Source of the DNA: an uncultured Gemmatimonadota bacterium
Lineage (GTDB): Bacteria > Gemmatimonadota > CAZMKB01 > CAZNLH01
Direction: 5' to 3'
Assembly (NCBI GenBank): GCA_964577985.1
Contig: CAZOAR010000002.1
Coordinates: 13,130-77,129, forward strand
DNA length: 64,000 nt
Both the position numbers and the translations under genes were made by a program. How positions within the stretch are numbered: the first letter of the stretch is position 1; every line of letters starts with the position of its first letter. Shown piece by piece: positions 54,489 through 62,928 of this stretch. The notes under the pieces are model-generated. The model did no database searches, was not told where the DNA came from, and was given only the letters and a program-made list of their open reading frames with translations.

Positions 54489-54857
54489 TTATGTTTTATC
54501 TTTATGCCGTTCCCGACTGCCATGTGTTTCGTGATAATAAGCGCCCTGCTCCTTAGTGTCAAGCTTTAATGAGGAGTGTCCCTGGAGGGATTTCCTGAGG
54601 CGGTTTTCATCTACTCTATATTTAAACGCCTTGCGGCCACAGACGAAGATAACCGGTATCTCTTCGCCATAGAGCCTGGTGAGCTCATCATCTTTCGAGA
54701 TGTCTATTTCACGATAAACGAACGGGATCTCCTGCTTCACCCTCATTATCACGTCCTTCGCCTTTCGGCAGAGAGAGCATCCCGACCGCGTATAGAGTGA
54801 AACGGTCAGGTTACTCGATTCTGATATATTTGCACCTTCCATCCTATTCAGCATCAT
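54489..54857 (-). CDS. Glutaredoxin-like protein (thioredoxin fold, CxxC = CSLC)
   Basis: …VSLYTRSGCSLCRKAKDV…IPVIFVCGR… resembles NrdH/glutaredoxin. Start Met uncertain (several Mets between 54842 and 54899). Sits immediately downstream of selenoprotein candidate A. Confidence 0.6.
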   Translation of the reverse strand: MMLNRMEGANISESSNLTVSLYTRSGCSLCRKAKDVIMRVKQEIPFVYREIDISKDDELTRLYGEEIPVIFVCGRKAFKYRVDENRLRKSLQGHSSLKLDTKEQGAYYHETHGSRERHKDKT

Positions 54858-55806
54858 AGATTCTCCGGAGCTGCGCCTTCCTCCTCGTCCTGTACTCATC
54901 CAGAAAAGGCAGCATCCCTGACTGGTCTTCGATGTCGGACCCGAGGGGAATCAATTCCGCGCTTTTCTGTTCAACGGGGCTATCGCCGAGCCCGAGATCC
55001 AGCCGCCCGAGAGAACGTCCGTGAGTCTCACCCTTCAGGACCACTGTTCCACCAACCAATATGGGATCGTAGATCCTTGTGCCACCGTGCCCCAGTATTA
55101 CCACGTCGAGGTTCTGGTACTTCTCTGCCAGTTTCCTGCCCTCATCGAAACCGACGTGGAACAAACCCACGAGGAGATCGACTTTATCCTTCAATTCTAT
55201 CGTGAGTTTCTCGACACGTTCATCCGGATCCGCCATAACCCATCCAGGGGCCATCATACCATCGCCGGTCGGCAGCGTGACACCTATCAACCCGATCTTC
55301 AACCCGCCCCTGTCGACAATCAGAGATGGTATGCCGACTTCCTCGCCCTCGAACTCGAGATTACACGAAAGAAGCGGTAGACGTCCAGAAAGACTCTCAA
55401 TGAATTGATTCCCCATGGCTAGATCTCGCTCGCCGGGGACAACGGCGTCATACTTCATCGCCGCCATAGCCTTTGCCAGTATATCCGATTTGAGCTCACC
55501 CAGCGGGTCCGGCGCCAGCGAGAAGTCGCCCACATTCACGAGCAGCACAGCCTGGCCCTCTTGTCTTATCTTATCGATCATCGTCGCCCGCCGGGCGATT
55601 CCACCCTGAAGGGGCTTCTTTCACCCGCACGGCTCCAGGTATCCCAGCTCGTCCGAACTGTACAGGATCGTCACCAGAGAAGATTCCTCGGCGGGAGAGG
55701 AGACCGGGAAAAGCAGCGCCGCCACACATGAAAGAAGGAGAAACAGTCCGGCCCCCGGAGATGAAATAACTCGGCCAATACGGGTCCCTGACAAGGAACT
55801 CATCAT
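54844..55806 (-). CDS. Candidate selenoprotein A: secreted degenerate metallophosphoesterase-like protein with in-frame TGA (Sec) at 55621..55623, motif …YLEPCG-U-KKP…
   Basis: ORF-track entries 55621..55806 and 54844..55581 are in the same frame (55623-55581=42) and separated only by TGA plus 13 sense codons (KKPLQGGIARRAT). Signal peptide. ILYSSDELG replaces the DxH motif-I, NVGDFS is motif II, GERDL replaces GNHE, and GHGG is retained. The ATG overlaps the TGA of the DtxR-like gene. Confidence 0.6.
55584..55598 (-). promoter_or_regulatory. Putative SECIS-like hairpin about 25 nt downstream of the UGA of selenoprotein A
   Basis: mRNA UCGCCCGGCGGGCGA (5-6 bp GC stem). The same nucleotide sequence occurs at the equivalent position in paralog B. 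Confidence 0.35.
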
Positions 55807-56666
55807 GTCACCTCCCTCACAAAAATCTCTCTGCCGACGGCCTTATCGAGCGCGACCGTTGTCTCGTCCACCTCCACCACGTAGCTGGGATGGCGCTGTT
55901 TGAGTCTGAGGACGCCGCCCGGCGCCAGTCCAAGCGTGCCGAGGCGCTCGAGCCTGCTCTGATAGCTTGGTGTTATGAACACAACACGTGCTTTCTTTCC
56001 CACTTCGAGGTTCGTCAATGGCGTCACAAGGGGTTCGATATGCGTTCCGAAGATCCTGCAGCAGTCGCCCCGGGGGATAGCCTTCCCGTGGGGACAGGTC
56101 GGGGGATGCCCGAGGAATGTGCACACCCTGTCGGTCACCTGAGGGCTCAATATGTGTTCGAACTTGCAGGCACTGCTGTGGGCCTCAGGATCGCCTACGT
56201 CGAGAATCTCCATGAGCAGTCGTTCTGCGAGCCGGTGACTGCGCACGATCTTTCTGGCGATCGCTCTCCCACGTTCCTTCATGAATATTTCGCCATCCCC
56301 GAGCGAGATCAGACCTCTATCCTCTATCGCTCTCAGCTGATCTGACAGCTGCCCCTTCCCCTTGAAATCCACTGAGTCATGCGGCGATTCATCGCTTTCC
56401 GCCTCTCGTGTCCCAGATTCGCCTTCGAGCATCGACACCTTGAGGCCGCCTTCTCCTCCACCCTCTTCCCACAACCACAACCTTTGGAGCAATTCTTCTA
56501 TGCGTTCTTCCAACTCTACTCTCCCTGGCTTTCTTCCCTGTGACTGAACCCGCGCTTGATGACAGCGCATATCCTGCCGATAATATCTACAATCTTCGAT
56601 TGGCCGACGACCTGATACCCGCAGCGGGGACAGCAGGCAAGATGGTTCCCGCTCGACAGGGGGCAA
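55803..56666 (-). CDS. DtxR/IdeR-family metal-dependent regulator with C-terminal FeoA/SH3-like domain
   Basis: …SHRLAERLLMEIL…, …CTFLGHPPTCPHGKAIP… (DtxR metal site). C-terminal …VGKKARVVFITP…LGLAPGGVLRLKQRHPSYVVEVDETTVAL (FeoA-like). N-terminal extension is atypical and the start is uncertain. Confidence 0.7.
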   Translation of the reverse strand: MPPVEREPSCLLSPLRVSGRRPIEDCRYYRQDMRCHQARVQSQGRKPGRVELEERIEELLQRLWLWEEGGGEGGLKVSMLEGESGTREAESDESPHDSVDFKGKGQLSDQLRAIEDRGLISLGDGEIFMKERGRAIARKIVRSHRLAERLLMEILDVGDPEAHSSACKFEHILSPQVTDRVCTFLGHPPTCPHGKAIPRGDCCRIFGTHIEPLVTPLTNLEVGKKARVVFITPSYQSRLERLGTLGLAPGGVLRLKQRHPSYVVEVDETTVALDKAVGREIFVREVT

Positions 56667-56718: not shown

Positions 56719-58680
56719 TCAGAATGTCCAACCCATGCCTCTCAGGATCGTGTTCAACACACCGCCCGTCAGGATCGCAAACGGGAAAATGAAGGCCATC
56801 ATCGCCAGGGCCATGCCCAGTCCCCTCTCCTTGACGATTATAAAGAAATTGGCGATGCATGGAACGAAAAGAGTTATCGTGACCAGGCTCACGACTATCT
56901 GAACACCGTCGAGCTTGCCGTCACGCGCCAGCATGAAGAGCCCGGCGGCGCCATAATCTCTCCGCAGAAATCCCACGACAAAAGACTCGGTCGTTTCACC
57001 CGGCAGACCCAGAAAACCCTCGACAACGGGTCGTGCCGCGTGTTCAACGGCCGACAGGAGTCCGATCCTGCTGGAGAGGAAAAGAACCAGCGTGCCAAGG
57101 ACAAAGAGGGGAACCGCCTCCTTGAGATACCACTCTATCCGGGCGACACTCTTTGTCACTATGTTCTTCATCTGCGGAAGCCTCACCGGGGGTATCTCGA
57201 GTATGAAATCCGCCCGTTCTCCGGGAATCACAAGTGATGCCAGAAAACCCACGAGGAGCAACATGCACGAGATTACTCCCACCCAGAGCAGAGTCGCCCC
57301 GAACGACAGGCCCCCCAGCATTCCCAGAATGACCCCGAGCTGTGCGGAGCACGGAACGCCGAGGGCGAGAAGCAGTGTCGTAACGATCTTCTCTTTCCTG
57401 CTGCCCAGGATACGTGTCGTCAGTGTGGCCATGGTGTCACATCCGAGTCCAAGGATCATGGGCAGGACGGCTTTTCCGTTGAGACCTATCATTCTGAATA
57501 CCCTGTCCACCATGACGGCGAGCCTGGGCAGGTAGCCCGAATCTTCCAGTATACCGAAGGCGACAAAGAAAGTGCCTACAACAGGAAGTACGATCGCCAC
57601 TGAATAGGTAAGCGCCATAGTGAAGACACCATATTCCCCGACGAGGAGGTCCCGTACAAGCTGAAACGGGATGATGGCGTCGACCAACCTTGTGACAGCC
57701 GGATTTACATACTCACCAAAGACCACACCTTCCATGAAGTTCACCATATCACCGGCTCCCAGCACACCCACAAACTCATACAGAAGATAGAGTACGACAA
57801 GCAGGAACGGAATGCCCCACAGGGGATGCATGGCCAATTCCCCGATATCCTTCACGACGGATGACTTCCGGGCGGCTTTTTTCGAAAGCACCTTGTCCAG
57901 GATCCTGTCGATCGCCCACAACCGCTGCTGATTGATGATCGACCCGATGGGCTGCGCGTATTTAGCCCTCATCACCCTGCACACTTTCTCGATGCCATCG
58001 ATCGCATCGGTGTTTATCCTGTCTCTGAGATACGGTATTATCGTCGTGTCGCCGGAAAGCAACATCAGCGCCAGGGAACGCCGAGCTATCGCGCAGTGGG
58101 GCAGCAATTCCTCGAGTCCGGCTATTGCCTCCTCGACTTCCTCCGAATATACGACAGGTCTTCCTGTTTTCTTCTCTTTCGTGATACCCTTCAGGAGGGA
58201 GTCGATCCCCTCTCTTCGGGTCGCCACTGTAGAAACAACGTCTATACCAAGCAATTCCGAGAGCCTGTCCGTGTCAACCTTTATGCCTCGGTTACTGGCC
58301 TCGTCGCCCATATTCAGATCGAGGAGGAAGGGGAGTCCCATCTCGATCAACTGTATGGAGATGCTGAGAGCACGCCTGAGGTTTTTCGCATCCGCGACCT
58401 GTACGATGCTGTCCGCCGGGTGCTCAAGAAGGACATTCCGCGTCACCTCTTCATCCTCCGATGTGGGCACCAGACTGTTAATCCCGGGCGTGTCAAAGAC
58501 GGTATAGCTCTCTCCGCCGAGTACCACCTTCCCTACACTCATCTCAACGGTGGTCCCCGGATAATTGGACACGGTCACATATCGTCCGGTCATGACATTG
58601 AAGAGCACGCTCTTTCCCACGTTGGGGTTGCCCACCAGGATCAGCTTCTTCTCTATTCTTTCAGTGCGGGTTCTGGTCAT
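56719..58680 (-). CDS. feoB: Ferrous iron transporter B
   Basis: G-domain LILVGNPNVGKSVLFN…DTPG. Long polytopic C-terminal permease. Confidence 0.9.
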   Translation of the reverse strand: MTRTRTERIEKKLILVGNPNVGKSVLFNVMTGRYVTVSNYPGTTVEMSVGKVVLGGESYTVFDTPGINSLVPTSEDEEVTRNVLLEHPADSIVQVADAKNLRRALSISIQLIEMGLPFLLDLNMGDEASNRGIKVDTDRLSELLGIDVVSTVATRREGIDSLLKGITKEKKTGRPVVYSEEVEEAIAGLEELLPHCAIARRSLALMLLSGDTTIIPYLRDRINTDAIDGIEKVCRVMRAKYAQPIGSIINQQRLWAIDRILDKVLSKKAARKSSVVKDIGELAMHPLWGIPFLLVVLYLLYEFVGVLGAGDMVNFMEGVVFGEYVNPAVTRLVDAIIPFQLVRDLLVGEYGVFTMALTYSVAIVLPVVGTFFVAFGILEDSGYLPRLAVMVDRVFRMIGLNGKAVLPMILGLGCDTMATLTTRILGSRKEKIVTTLLLALGVPCSAQLGVILGMLGGLSFGATLLWVGVISCMLLLVGFLASLVIPGERADFILEIPPVRLPQMKNIVTKSVARIEWYLKEAVPLFVLGTLVLFLSSRIGLLSAVEHAARPVVEGFLGLPGETTESFVVGFLRRDYGAAGLFMLARDGKLDGVQIVVSLVTITLFVPCIANFFIIVKERGLGMALAMMAFIFPFAILTGGVLNTILRGMGWTF

Positions 58681-58711: not shown

Positions 58712-59179
58712 TCAGTCAATCTCCGTCGAACATTTCCTGCACAGCCCGTAGATCACCAGCTCATGATCCCGGGCGTCAAAGCTGAGCTTGTCAATTACGA
58801 CCTCCTGCAGCCGTTCTATATCAGGCACCTCGAACTCGATCACCTCGCCGCAATCCTCGCAAATCAAGTGATCGTGATGGCGTTTGTCAATGATCCTTTC
58901 GAATTTCCGGAACCCGACGCCGAAATCGTGCTCCCGGACCACCCCACTCGAGACCATCAGCGCGAGCGTCCTGTAAATGGTCGCCAGACCTATCCTGAGG
59001 TTCTTCTTCTTCAGGACGAGCGCGAGTTCCTCCACGGAGAAATGGCCATCCATCGACATGACCGTCGTCGCGATTTGCTCCCGCTGAAGCGTGAGAAACA
59101 GCTTCTCCTCTCTGAGGTACTCCCTGAATCTGCCTGTAGTATCCATGATCTGCTCTTCGAAATTGAGAATGATTATCAA
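58712..59179 (-). CDS. fur: Fur-family transcriptional regulator
   Basis: …LRRTLQREQIATTVMS… HTH. HHDHLICEDCGEVIEFE metal site plus C-terminal CRKC. The true start is likely the internal ATG at 59146. Confidence 0.85.
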   Translation of the reverse strand: MIIILNFEEQIMDTTGRFREYLREEKLFLTLQREQIATTVMSMDGHFSVEELALVLKKKNLRIGLATIYRTLALMVSSGVVREHDFGVGFRKFERIIDKRHHDHLICEDCGEVIEFEVPDIERLQEVVIDKLSFDARDHELVIYGLCRKCSTEID

Positions 59180-59183
59180 TATA
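59165..59183. promoter_or_regulatory. Fur box in the fur / oxidoreductase divergent promoter region
   Basis: GAGAATGATTATCAATATA matches GATAATGATAATCATTATC at 15 of 19 positions. Confidence 0.5.
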
Positions 59184-60966: not shown

Positions 60967-61506
60967 TCAGAGCAATTCCTCGATCTTCTCCTCCATAAAC
61001 GCACGCCCCCTGAAGCCTTCGAGCATTTCCCTTACTCTTCCCTCCCTATCAAAGATAAATGTCGTGGGAACTCCCCCTATTCCGCCGAAGAGGTGAGCCG
61101 TCTCCACGCTGCCGATCAGGAGAGGGATCTTGACCTTGTGCCTCTCGATAAAAGAATTGAGATACTTACCCTCCCCCTTGTCGAGAGAGATGGCTACGAC
61201 TTCCAGGCCCTCTTTCTTATGTTCCGACTCGAGCCTGTCGAGCCCCTTCAGTTCGGCTACACTCGCCTCCGCGGATGGCATCCAGAAGAGAATGACAACG
61301 ACTTTTCCCCACAACTCGGATGAGCTGTGGATTCCGGCGCGATGGTCCTTCAGGGAGAACCGCGGAAGATATGCCTCATCAGGCAACCCGTAGGGTTTTT
61401 TCCCTGGATAGAACAGAACGATGGCCGTGACAATCGCGATCAATACCAGCGCGGAGAAGATCAAGATCTTTCGCCGGCTCTTTTCGGACCTTTTCACACA
61501 CATCAC
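60967..61506 (-). CDS. TlpA/ResA-like thioredoxin-fold protein lacking the CxxC active site
   Basis: N-terminal TM anchor. Thioredoxin fold (…GKVVVILFWMPSAEASVAELKGL…VVAISLD…IPTTFIFDREGRV…) in which the canonical WCxPC is replaced by WMPSAEAS. Confidence 0.65.
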   Translation of the reverse strand: MMCVKRSEKSRRKILIFSALVLIAIVTAIVLFYPGKKPYGLPDEAYLPRFSLKDHRAGIHSSSELWGKVVVILFWMPSAEASVAELKGLDRLESEHKKEGLEVVAISLDKGEGKYLNSFIERHKVKIPLLIGSVETAHLFGGIGGVPTTFIFDREGRVREMLEGFRGRAFMEEKIEELL

Positions 61507-61596: not shown

Positions 61597-62928
61597 TCAG
61601 TGAACGAGATCCTTCATCGCCTCGTAGTCGAAGCCCTCTCCCCTCTCACCCGTGTGACAGGTGATGCATACAAAGACATTGCCCGCCTGTAGAGGCGCGT
61701 TTCCTTTGTCGGCAATATGCCTTGACGCCGGACCATGGCACTGTTCGCACTGGACGTTATTGAAGTTGGGAGTCTCGTCTATTGTCACAAAACCGCCTTT
61801 CTGATAACCGGTCGTGTGACACTTCACGCATTCCGGGTTGTACTCCTCGCCTTCCTTCTTGAGCGTAAGAAAAGCACGGGCGTGGCTCGTAGCATTCCAC
61901 TTCTCGTATATCTCAGCATGACAGGAACGGCACCACGCGGCGCCCATGTAGCCCGCCTTAGAACCCTTCAATTGCCCCCTTCGAGCATCCACATCGCTTT
62001 TTACCATATCCTTGACTCTCGACTGGTAGTCGGAGTAGAGTTCCGCCATCTCTGTGTCATCAGCGACCTTCGCGTCGAGAGGCACGAGTTCTCCGGAGAA
62101 TTCTACGATTTCCTTCGCCTTACGGTCAAAGGTAAGATCTATCCTGCCAAGATACTTACCCTTATCACCGGACTGGGCCATTATGGCTCCACCAACCGAT
62201 ACCGGTGTCTTCACCCTTCGACCCTGATGCCCCACGACAACGACATCTATCCCCTCCTGGCTTTCCGCCAGCGCAACCGACTGCCGATATCCCAGATGGC
62301 TCATCACCACAACAAGGTCGACCTTCTTACGCAATCTCGGAATGGCCTCCGCGAGGGCCTCGAACGGATCCTGGACCGTCCATTCCTCCTGCCCGACCCT
62401 GAGTTGATCAAGGGTGACCCCCACTATGCCGATTTTGATTCCTCCCCGCTTGATTATGAGATCTTTCCTGCCAAACTGCTTCCCGTTGTACTTCATATTC
62501 GTGTCGACGATGGGGATATCGCTCTTCTTCATCGTCTCCATGACAAACTCATCACCAAGCGCCAGTTCTCTCTCACCAAGCACAAGCGCGTCGTAATGCA
62601 TCTTCTTCATCGCCTCGAGGGACACGCTGCTCTTGACCCTTCCCTGATCGGTTGGCTTGCCGGCAAAATCTCCCAGACCCAGTATCAAGATCTCTCTATC
62701 CTCGTCTTCCGCCTCTCGTATCTTCGTCGCCCGCCGGGCGACCCCTCCCATAGGGTGCTTCTTTCAGCCACACGGTTCGAGATACCCGTATTCATCGCCT
62801 GTGTAGAGGATCGTAAGATTAACCAGGTCGCCACCCCTGGATGATGCGGGCAGAAGAGGAATGGACAGGAAGAGCGGCACGATGGAGGTCAGCGCCGCCG
62901 CGATAAGACACTTGTTTCGAAAAGACAT
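61597..62928 (-). CDS. Candidate selenoprotein B: secreted metallophosphoesterase-like domain with in-frame TGA (Sec) at 62764..62766 (…YLEPCG-U-KKH…) fused to a C-terminal tetraheme cytochrome c
   Basis: ORF-track entries 62764..63009 and 61597..62751 share a frame (62763-62751=12) and are separated by TGA plus four sense codons (KKHP). Signal peptide from the internal Met (MSFRNKCLIAAALTSIVPLFLSIPLLPASS). Motifs ILYTGDEYG / GLGDFAG / GERELALG / VVGHQG. C-terminal CRSCH, CVKCH, CEQCH, CITCH. Confidence 0.6.
62726..62742 (-). promoter_or_regulatory. Putative SECIS-like hairpin about 25 nt downstream of the UGA of selenoprotein B
   Basis: mRNA GUCGCCCGGCGGGCGAC (7-bp stem, 3-nt loop). Core GCCCGGCGGGCGAC is identical to the paralog A site. 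Confidence 0.35.

Follow-up and report, generated by a model that had tools for sequence, protein, structure and literature searches.

We find that the minus-strand gene at 55806..54844 is very probably a real selenocysteine (Sec)-encoding gene of the UshA-like family. In the window (the whole 64,000-nucleotide stretch that was analysed), it forms a coding sequence of 320 codons (54844..55806, minus strand) with an ATG at 55806, a TAG stop at 54846..54844 and, 4 nt 5′ of the ATG, a Shine-Dalgarno-like GGGAGG that can be read directly in the sequence (55811..55816, minus strand). Translation of 54844-55806 yields a single frame whose sole internal stop among 320 codons is the TGA at 55623..55621, in a context that reads VTILYSSDELGYLEPCG, stop, KKPLQGGIARRATMIDK. 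The open reading frame (ORF) entries 55621..55806 and 54844..55581 are the two halves of this one frame, split by the TGA, just as the original prediction had joined them. The TGA (55621..55623, minus strand) is the predicted Sec codon for residue 62, within the motif P59-C60-G61-U62 (with its flank, LEPCG-U-KKPLQGGIARRAT). The product, referred to below as the short form or short selenoprotein, ends at residue 320 and has no CxxCH motif.

Conservation of the in-frame TGA

The original prediction had pointed to the choice between TGA and TGC/TGT in relatives as informative, and both outcomes are seen, at different distances. All 7 orthologues that have upstream DNA (52-89% identity) carry TGA at the same column, with identical flanks, and these come from independent NCBI, JGI, ENA and Logan assemblies. 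The same-column TGA is also present in paralogues, one of them within the window, and in Anaerolineales relatives. Cys occupies the Sec column in 20+ homologues, as APC[DNAG]C, among them more distant ones from Polyangia and Planctomycetota, and C60 and C/U62 are invariant across the aligned homologues. Judged by codon-pair differences between orthologues, both flanks of the TGA are under purifying selection, with synonymous to nonsynonymous ratios of 163:33 upstream and 128:45 downstream. These observations bear directly on one rival explanation: that the TGA arose as an artefact of sequencing or assembly, or as a mutation that recently turned the gene into a pseudogene, so that the full-length protein would not exist. 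A single contig alone cannot exclude an error, and gene callers do split the gene, but the recurrence of the TGA across independent assemblies, paralogues and Anaerolineales relatives, together with the selection on either side of it, leaves this explanation effectively refuted at the level of sequence conservation.

A second possibility is that the locus encodes two products, with translation stopping at the TGA to release a 61-aa secreted peptide and a downstream ORF of 245 aa translated from its own start. The window does contain an ATG at codon 76 (ORF 54844..55581), and a 245-aa form exists in databases (P0001), where the short clade is represented solely by fragments, 212-248 aa long. 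Gene callers treat the paralogue in the same way, splitting or truncating it. The downstream start codons are not conserved, however, and the called products begin at differing residues. The reading frame is conserved through the 13 codons from the TGA to M76, which specify the GGxARRAT helix found across the family, while the N-terminal strand that carries the motif-I Asp belongs to the core of the fold (from the structure model of the homologue P0010 and Foldseek). The downstream piece would also lack a signal peptide. We therefore give the two-product reading very little weight and return to a single Sec-containing protein.

The signal peptide named in the original prediction is recognizable by inspection of the sequence and its orthologues. 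Residues 1-39 (55690..55806, minus strand) form a predicted Sec-type signal peptide with a basic n-region, a hydrophobic core (GAGLFLLLSCVAALLF) and likely cleavage after S-P-A. All orthologues of the short form likewise begin with a hydrophobic segment, after which comes an A-x-A-like site. From these N-terminal features, the 320-aa precursor is likely to be exported.

A SECIS-like hairpin and probable decoding of the UGA as Sec

Folding of the RNA downstream of the UGA places a SECIS-like hairpin, UCGCCC-GGC-GGGCGA, at 55584..55598 (minus strand), in which stem and loop begin 22 nt and 28 nt past the UGA, respectively. Bacterial SECIS elements, according to criteria reportedly given by Zhang & Gladyshev in 2005, are stem-loops downstream of the UGA, with a G in an apical loop that lies 16-37 nt from it. 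The GGC loop thus has canonical SECIS spacing, at a site that overlaps conserved codons and has no Rfam match. All pairs of the 6-bp stem form in 14/14 Sec forms, including one compensatory CG<->GC pair and one wobble, so that the covariation amounts to a single event. Third codon positions are frozen in the hairpin region and free upstream of it, and of the 6 equivalent pairs, the Cys-form controls (n=3) make just 4-5. Since the hairpin sits inside the codons for the conserved I-A-R-R-A-T, its conservation is in part protein-driven. Rfam SECIS families gave no match at gathering thresholds over the whole window, and permissive E-value scans at both UGAs returned chance matches only. Folding and comparison of Sec forms place a similar hairpin of 7 bp, GUCGCCC-GGC-GGGCGAC, in the paralogue (62726..62742, minus strand).

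By the standard bacterial route of Sec decoding, UGA codon 62 would be read as Sec by SelB and Sec-tRNA(Sec), with the hairpin, its loop 28 nt past the UGA, recruiting SelB. Components of this machinery were searched for near the gene. ARAGORN found no tRNA-Sec in the 64-kb window or in 14 fetched loci, six-frame motif scans of the window and fetched loci detected no SelD, SelB or SelA signatures, and the stretch past the window end, which showed an aconitase and an arylsulfotransferase, had no sel genes. The empty search of window and fetched loci would fit a UGA that is read through without Sec, for example through near-cognate suppression that inserts Cys or Trp, or under a lineage-wide reassignment of the code. 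Against such a reading, TGA is the commonest stop in the window and closes 31/56 long non-overlapping ORFs, conserved gene ends and the DtxR-like gene upstream included, which bears out its description in the original prediction as an ordinary stop elsewhere. Recoding is moreover seen only in two paralogues, at a single column that aligns with Cys, the hairpin is conserved at canonical SECIS spacing, and NCBI annotates the family as selenoprotein. Readthrough without Sec is accordingly highly improbable in our estimate. Taken with the Cys found in homologues and the coding conservation on both flanks, the conserved UGA and its SECIS-like hairpin uphold the candidate selenoprotein as first proposed.

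Placement in the UshA-like family and the remodelled site

The short selenoprotein is a new sub-branch of an already catalogued UshA-like Cys-x-Sec family and not a new kind of selenoprotein. The original prediction had not recognized it as belonging to any established selenoprotein family, a view that does not survive comparison with NCBIfam and the literature. Genome analyses had revealed UshA-like selenoproteins by 2008 at the latest, when ‘COG0737 UshA-like, CxU’ appeared among the previously characterised selenoprotein families in Zhang & Gladyshev 2008 (PMC2398784), and the family is also listed in two reviews. We found no functional study of it in the literature. The best NCBIfam match of the short form is NF041198 (‘UshA_like_PCGU, UshA-like (seleno)protein’; 141.5 bits, E=3e-41), with a score below the curated cutoff of 275 and a match that spans profile positions 7-270 of 519, the N-terminal half only; its orthologues score 131-145 bits. 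Judging from the extent of the 519-position profile, to which P0028 aligns over positions 26-511, NF041198 would comprise the N-domain, a linker and a multihaem cytochrome c domain. SoxB (TIGR04486) is the second-best match, at 79.4 bits against a cutoff of 550, and NF049981 (‘UshA-like (seleno)protein family 2’) scores 62.6 bits against a cutoff of 140.

The short form shares with NF041198 the N-terminal domain, P-C-G-U at the same column, the replaced catalytic residues, a signal peptide and a SECIS-like hairpin. It differs in stopping after the N-domain without a cytochrome, in scoring under the cutoff and in its location within an iron-uptake operon. It resembles NF049981 in being short (that profile has 262 positions), in having no cytochrome domain and in its Sec-containing UshA-like domain, but belongs to a different branch, with a CxU motif in place of the CxxU given for family 2 in a review. 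Among GTDB species representatives no close orthologue of the short clade was found, the best being a 40% match in a Gemmatimonadota-labelled MAG that is an orthologue of the paralogue.

This paralogue, 7 kb from the short form, is a full-length UshA_like_PCGU selenoprotein of 443 aa (61597..62928, minus strand; from translation, NF041198 and Pfam). It has a signal peptide, an in-frame TGA for Sec55 (62764..62766, minus strand; context YGYLEPCG-U-KKHPMGGVARRAT) and a C-terminal tetrahaem cytochrome domain with four CxxCH motifs, in which Pfam Cytochrome_C554 was matched. At 297.9 bits it exceeds the NF041198 cutoff of 275 and is a bona fide member, and its orthologues at L001/L002 and L010 carry the same TGA. 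In a neighbour-joining tree the short clade is sister to the clade of the cytochrome-fused paralogue. We see a strong likelihood that the short form is a lineage-specific paralogue without the cytochrome domain and a functional Sec-protein gene of the UshA-like group with the motif P-C-G-U. An adjoining AhpC/TSA-like gene, considered as a third selenoprotein, was ruled out, both an in-frame TGA and the redox-motif Cys being absent.

The short selenoprotein has a 5′-nucleotidase/SoxB-type metallophosphoesterase fold. Modelling was performed on the Cys homologue P0010 in place of the window protein, and gave a pLDDT of 92.5 with 5′-nucleotidases as the top Foldseek matches (E~1e-22). PDB sequence matches are also 5′-nucleotidases (E~1e-14), and Pfam Metallophos scores 15 bits on the short selenoprotein, under its cutoff of 21.5. 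Alignment with canonical 5′-nucleotidases shows the motifs DEL, GD, GERD, H and GHGG where these enzymes have DxH, GD, GNH[DE], H and GHxH. The changes of GNHE to GERD and GHxH to GHGG are therefore as originally described. The original prediction had further placed Sec at the DxH position with its His replaced; the motif-I DxH aligns with D52-E53-L54, which confirms the replacement (His to Leu), whereas Sec62 lies 10 residues past D52, within the loop before the GGxARRAT helix. The motif-I His (DxL), the Asn/His pair of GNH[DE] (G-E126-R-D) and the last His (GHGG) are replaced throughout the PCx[C/U] clade, and the loop following motif I has acquired an invariant Cys60-x-Sec62 pair. The replacements being invariant across the whole clade, the site is better described as remodelled than as decayed, so that of the ‘degenerate’ metallophosphoesterase first proposed the fold and the residue replacements stand but not the degeneracy. 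With D52, D94, H217 and H240 retained, the protein may still have a metal site.

Comparison with known enzymes of this fold locates the differences. The short form is like the 5′-nucleotidase/UDP-sugar hydrolase UshA and CD73 (COG0737; PDB 1USH, 2Z1A, 4H1S) in the metallophosphoesterase fold of its N-terminal domain, in its probable location, which for those enzymes is periplasmic or extracellular, and in four conserved elements: Asp in motif I, GD, His in motif IV and the first motif-V His. Unlike them, it is missing His in motif I, the Asn ligand of motif III, the catalytic His (GNHE to GERD) and the last ligand, has gained Cys-x-Sec, and is without the C-terminal 5′-nucleotidase substrate-binding domain PF02872, which a Pfam search did not find. 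The thiosulfohydrolase SoxB belongs to the same superfamily and is a periplasmic dinuclear-metal enzyme acting on a sulfur-sulfur bond, but its metal ligands are all in place and it carries no Cys/Sec pair. The protein may be an extracytoplasmic redox or metal-handling enzyme and not a phosphoesterase, and we lean towards a redox over a hydrolytic role. The Cys-Sec could cycle as a redox pair through a selenenylsulfide, or else coordinate metal in a remodelled site. Electrons might reach the sister paralogue from its fused tetrahaem cytochrome c, while the short form would need a separate electron partner.

Iron-operon neighbourhood and possible function

The short-form gene is the last in a minus-strand fur-feoB-dtxR string. 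Directly upstream lies a gene for a DtxR/IdeR-type iron-dependent repressor (55803..56519, minus strand; Pfam Fe_dep_repr_C and a FeoA/SH3-like domain), whose start is given only approximately, as the TTG listed at 56666 seems to extend the gene too far. It is preceded by feoB, encoding a ferrous iron transporter (56719..58680, minus strand; an ORF, with Pfam FeoB_N, FeoB_C and Gate on the syntenic orthologue), and by a fur-family regulator gene (58712..59143, minus strand; Pfam FUR, 107.5 bits; likely start an ATG at about 59143). At the head of the string is a Fur-box-like site, TATATTGATAATCATTCTC (59165..59183, minus strand), which matches 16/19 consensus positions, as 0/100 shuffles do; Fur-box-like sites also occur upstream of fur in L010 and L001. 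No strong terminator-like site was detected between feoB and the selenoprotein gene. From its position at the end of a string headed by such a site, the gene is probably iron-regulated in this lineage.

The ATGA coupling to the DtxR/FeoB/Fur genes noted in the original prediction is present at the locus, where the TGA stop of the dtxR-like gene (55805..55803) overlaps the selenoprotein ATG at 55806. The overlap is not conserved, orthologues having gaps of 34-77 nt. The gene order itself recurs, with DtxR-like orthologues of 236 aa directly upstream of the short selenoprotein in all 5 distinct orthologous loci that include upstream DNA (L001/L002, L005, L007 and L009 by Pfam; L006, cut by the contig end, is unannotated). 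On the other side, a glutaredoxin-like gene (DUF836, CxxC; 54489..54857, minus strand; Pfam Glrx-like, 66.6 bits) shares ~14 nt with the 3′ end of the selenoprotein gene. L003 shows the same overlap; in L004 and L007 the glutaredoxin-like gene is an immediate neighbour, and in L001, L005 and L009 it is missing from that place.

One hypothesis for the role of the short form is that the Cys-Sec and the retained Asp/Glu/His bind iron or another metal, making it a periplasmic accessory of FeoB (a ferric reductase or Fe(II) chaperone) and not a general redox enzyme on a sulfur or selenium substrate. The operon position, the ATGA overlap, the Fur-box-like site and the placement directly after a DtxR-like gene in 5 distinct loci, 4 of them Pfam-confirmed, all point in this direction, and the four haems of the paralogue would suit electron delivery. 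Metallophosphoesterase folds can also bind Fe, as in purple acid phosphatases. On the other hand, the short-form orthologues are all from one lineage, in which the entire neighbourhood is syntenic, unrelated neighbours too, while family members in Anaerolineales and Polyangia have no feo neighbours, and no Feo-selenoprotein link was found in the literature. We consider a role as FeoB accessory unlikely, and a functional tie to iron uptake in the broader sense doubtful. The most elaborate version, in which the short form is a periplasmic selenoenzyme under iron control that cooperates with FeoB and might reduce or pass on iron at the remodelled Asp/Glu/His and Cys/Sec site, with the cytochrome-fused paralogue as its electron-fed counterpart, is more speculative again and decidedly improbable as a whole.

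The short-form gene and its paralogue should be annotated as encoding Sec-containing proteins. The locus offers two clues to the function of this family, namely a pair of paralogues with and without a tetrahaem cytochrome, and a short form that ends a fur-feoB-dtxR string behind a Fur-box-like site. These suggest, as hypotheses, electron-driven chemistry at the Cys-Sec site and regulation by iron. If the short form does prove to be a partner of FeoB, this would provide the first functional handle on UshA-like selenoproteins and would tie the use of selenium to the acquisition of iron.

A conserved and translated UGA in the short selenoprotein gene

The gene at 55806..54844 (-), here the short form, is a single frame of 320 codons whose one internal stop is a TGA at 55623..55621 (-), in the context ...VTILYSSDELGYLEPCG-*-KKPLQGGIARRATMIDK..., which bears out the original prediction of one reading frame broken by TGA alone. 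A Shine-Dalgarno sequence (GGGAGG) lies 4 nt 5′ of its ATG on the same (-) strand, and this start codon and the TGA that ends the preceding DtxR-like gene share the sequence ATGA, also as predicted. TGA had been described as a normal stop elsewhere. Of the 56 long non-overlapping ORFs in the window, 31 do end in TGA, more than in any other stop codon, so the standard genetic code is in use and recoding, if any, has to be confined to specific sites.

When the read-through protein was used as a database query, nine closest relatives came back at 100-52% identity, all of them fragments of 212-248 aa covering the post-TGA part only. DNA was retrieved for eight of the nine, the orthologue loci with upstream sequence coming from NCBI, JGI and Logan assemblies. 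Checking the orthologues at this column, as had been proposed, found TGA in every locus that reaches 5′ (L001/L002, L003, L005, L006, L007, L008, L009), flanked by TSDE[LY]GY[LV][EN]PCG before and K[KE]P[LR][QL]GG[IV]ARRAT after. Such conservation across independent assemblies excludes an assembly error or a pseudogene. Synonymous to nonsynonymous codon-pair differences among the orthologues stand at 163:33 over the 12 codons 5′ of the TGA and 128:45 over the 14 codons 3′ of it. Two separate products split at the TGA are disfavored: the start codons that gene callers place downstream vary between orthologues without conservation, the codons bridging the TGA to these starts are conserved, and the downstream piece would have neither signal peptide nor core strand 1. 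Distant homologues (~33% identity; some labelled Polyangia, one Planctomycetota) are uninterrupted and carry Cys at the TGA column (APCDC, APCNC, APCAC, EPCGC). This alignment with Cys, together with the use of TGA as a normal stop, also disfavors a code change or UGA read-through without Sec. At the level of sequence comparison, the retained TGA, two-sided coding conservation and Cys homologues are the classical Sec/Cys signature. The comparison shows that a UGA at a Cys-aligned column is conserved and translated; the short form is a real feature and a selenoprotein call of high quality.

Folding places a SECIS-like hairpin (UCGCCC-GGC-GGGCGA) at 55598..55584 (-), with a 6-bp stem beginning 22 nt and a G-rich loop beginning 28 nt downstream of the UGA. 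Each of 14 Sec-encoding relatives, drawn from the short clade, the paralogue clade described below and Anaerolineales forms, makes the full set of six pairs (14/14), with one G-U wobble among them, while the equivalent positions of three Cys-encoding relatives form 4, 5 and 4 of the six. Third codon positions within the hairpin (GCC CGG MGG GCG) are nearly frozen in eight orthologues, and upstream codons are free to vary. The hairpin coincides with codons of the conserved peptide IARRAT, and its covariation amounts to one event only, a compensatory C-G to G-C change in three Anaerolineales sequences. No Rfam model matched it in scans of the window and around both UGAs. The hairpin is thus compatible with a bacterial SECIS element, short of proof. 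No signatures of tRNA-Sec, SelA, SelB or SelD were found within the window or the fetched loci. The window has a second gene with this TGA recoding, which lends indirect support to Sec decoding.

Family assignment and the cytochrome-fused paralogue

Pfam returns a below-threshold Metallophos match for the short form and nothing else. The top NCBIfam match is NF041198 (‘UshA_like_PCGU, UshA-like (seleno)protein’, E=3e-41), followed by SoxB and NF049981 (‘UshA-like (seleno)protein family 2’). ‘COG0737, UshA-like’, with a CxU motif and without a classical redox motif, contributed 76 Sec sequences to the GOS data set and was counted among previously characterised selenoprotein families (Zhang & Gladyshev 2008, PMC2398784); reviews of 2022 and 2026 list both the UshA-like selenoprotein and family 2. 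The premise of a new family is therefore wrong, since NCBIfam and the literature already list UshA-like selenoproteins. The short form scores 141.5 bits against the NF041198 equivalog cutoff of 275, covering only positions 7-270 of 519, and 62.6 against the NF049981 cutoff of 140. The NF041198 profile comprises an N-domain, a linker and a multihaem cytochrome, and the homologous protein P0028 aligns over positions 26-511. Short-clade orthologues, Anaerolineales short Sec forms and Polyangia Cys forms all score 130-150 bits with this profile, so several cytochrome-less branches lie outside the curated models. The short form is of a known kind: a new cytochrome-less, un-modelled branch of the UshA-like Cys-x-Sec selenoproteins.

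Scanning the window for TGA-interrupted frames detected the second gene, a full-length UshA_like_PCGU selenoprotein at 62928..61597 (-), hereafter the paralogue. Its in-frame TGA lies at 62766..62764 (-) (YGYLEPCG-U-KKHPMGGVARRAT), and the same hairpin folds at 62742..62726 (-). The 443-aa product clears the NF041198 cutoff (297.9 bits) and has a signal peptide and, in a tetrahaem, cytochrome c554-like C-terminal domain (Pfam Cytochrome_C554 match), four CxxCH motifs. Haem c attachment takes place in the periplasm, so the four c-type haems imply export. The TGA is also present in its orthologues in L001/L002 and in L010, a Gemmatimonadota-labelled MAG locus of the same synteny whose copy is 63% identical. 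Gene callers reduce the paralogue to a 384-aa ORF (61597..62751).

In a neighbor-joining tree built on the domain that they share, the short and paralogue clades come out as sisters; the short form is thus a duplicate specific to this lineage that lacks the cytochrome domain. Further out follow, in turn, Cys forms, Chloroflexi-type short Sec forms and canonical GNH[DE] enzymes. The short Sec-containing relatives in Anaerolineales MAGs (L011 3782..4822, L012, L021; LPCG-U-NPTAGGVARRAT) combine a lipoprotein-type signal (LLCGC) with a long Pro/Thr-rich linker, carry the hairpin with the compensatory G-C pair, and score under both NCBIfam cutoffs. In the Cys form P0033 (L027 6001..7572), the C-terminal third aligns to the P0028 cytochrome domain, is Arg/Pro-rich without CxxCH, and has the look of a cytochrome domain altered by a frameshift or mis-assembly. 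Directly 3′ of the paralogue, an AhpC/TSA (TlpA-like) thioredoxin-fold gene (60967..61506 (-)) has no Cys at its redox motif (FWMPSAEAS; FWKVSAKAS in L010 1807..2340) and appears to encode a redox-dead partner or binding protein; L001/L002 have a Redoxin/AhpC-TSA gene, known from its Pfam match only, at the same position.

A metallophosphoesterase fold without the phosphoesterase catalytic His

Alignment with canonical 5′-nucleotidases shows that the short form has a metallophosphoesterase fold, common to both, without the phosphoesterase catalytic His. Motif I (DxH) reads D52-E-L with its His lost, Polyangia forms having Asn for Asp; motif III (GNH[DE]) reads G-E126-R-D, having lost the metal-ligand Asn and the catalytic His; motif V (GHxH) reads G-H240-G-G. 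Motif II (GD, D94) and the motif IV His (H217) are retained. The short form has gained an invariant Cys-x-Sec (Cys60 and Sec/Cys62). Contrary to what had been proposed, Sec62 does not occupy the DxH column; it lies 10 residues past D52, in the loop linking strand 1 to the GGxARRAT helix. The predicted degeneracy of the metal-ligand motifs holds for GERD and GHGG, but not as decay: E126 is invariant within the clade, and since the substitutions are fixed clade-wide, the site is remodelled. P0010, a Cys homologue, gives a confident AlphaFold model (pLDDT 92.5), which is closest among solved structures to CD73, Thermus 5′-nucleotidase and UshA (E~1e-22, TM about 0.6); a PDB sequence search found none from the UshA-like (seleno)protein family.

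Iron-operon neighborhood and possible role

On the (-) strand the order is a Fur-box-like site, fur, feoB, a DtxR-type repressor, the selenoprotein, DUF836, YbbR-like, response regulators and type II secretion/pilus genes. The Fur-box-like site (59165..59183 (-); 16/19 consensus matches, 0/100 shuffles matching) overlaps the likely fur promoter and heads the fur-feoB-dtxR-selenoprotein string, in which no strong terminator-like site was found between feoB and the short form. Similar sites lie 5′ of fur in L010 (3787..3800) and L001 (6201..6219), so that the site is conserved in two related lineages. Gene order is the same in the five distinct orthologous loci that reach upstream (L001/L002, L005, L006, L007, L009); the gene 5′ of the short form is DtxR-like by Pfam in four, and the dtxR-selenoprotein junctions are gaps of 34-77 nt, without overlap. 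This arrangement suggests that the short form is co-transcribed under iron regulation, a reading of limited weight because the loci all belong to one generally syntenic lineage. Anaerolineales and Polyangia family members have unrelated neighbors, the Polyangia one being a divergently oriented gene of the sigma-70 family.

The glutaredoxin-like DUF836 gene (54489..54857 (-)), whose product has a CSLC motif and lacks a signal peptide, overlaps the 3′ end of the short form by ~14 nt, likewise in L003; it adjoins the short form in L004 and L007, and is not at that position in L001, L005 or L009. The annotated TTG start of the DtxR-like ORF (55803..56666 (-), 287 aa) seems too far 5′; orthologues are 236 aa, so the start is likely near 56519. 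For fur, the TTG at 59179 falls within the Fur box, and an ATG at ~59143 is likely. The Cys forms P0033 and P0018 show divergent pairing with a Sigma70_r2 sigma-70-family gene (L027 4674..5936, L028 1023..2024), which suggests a regulatory context unlike the iron operon of the window. Just past the high end of the window, L026 (253..2109) carries, beside an aconitase gene, one for an arylsulfotransferase-like protein whose tail is of the Por secretion (T9SS) type; this agrees with a source for the window in the FCB group or a Gemmatimonadota-like lineage.

In the favored scheme, Sec is very probably inserted by a SelB-dependent route and the short form is probably exported by its predicted N-terminal signal peptide. 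Its role is more likely redox or metal-centered than hydrolytic, with Cys-Sec as the reactive center; the long form would draw electrons from its haems and the short form from a separate partner. Expression is probably iron-responsive. It is unlikely that the short form handles iron for FeoB. For annotation the short form is of some use, and it also offers a lead to the function of the UshA-like family.
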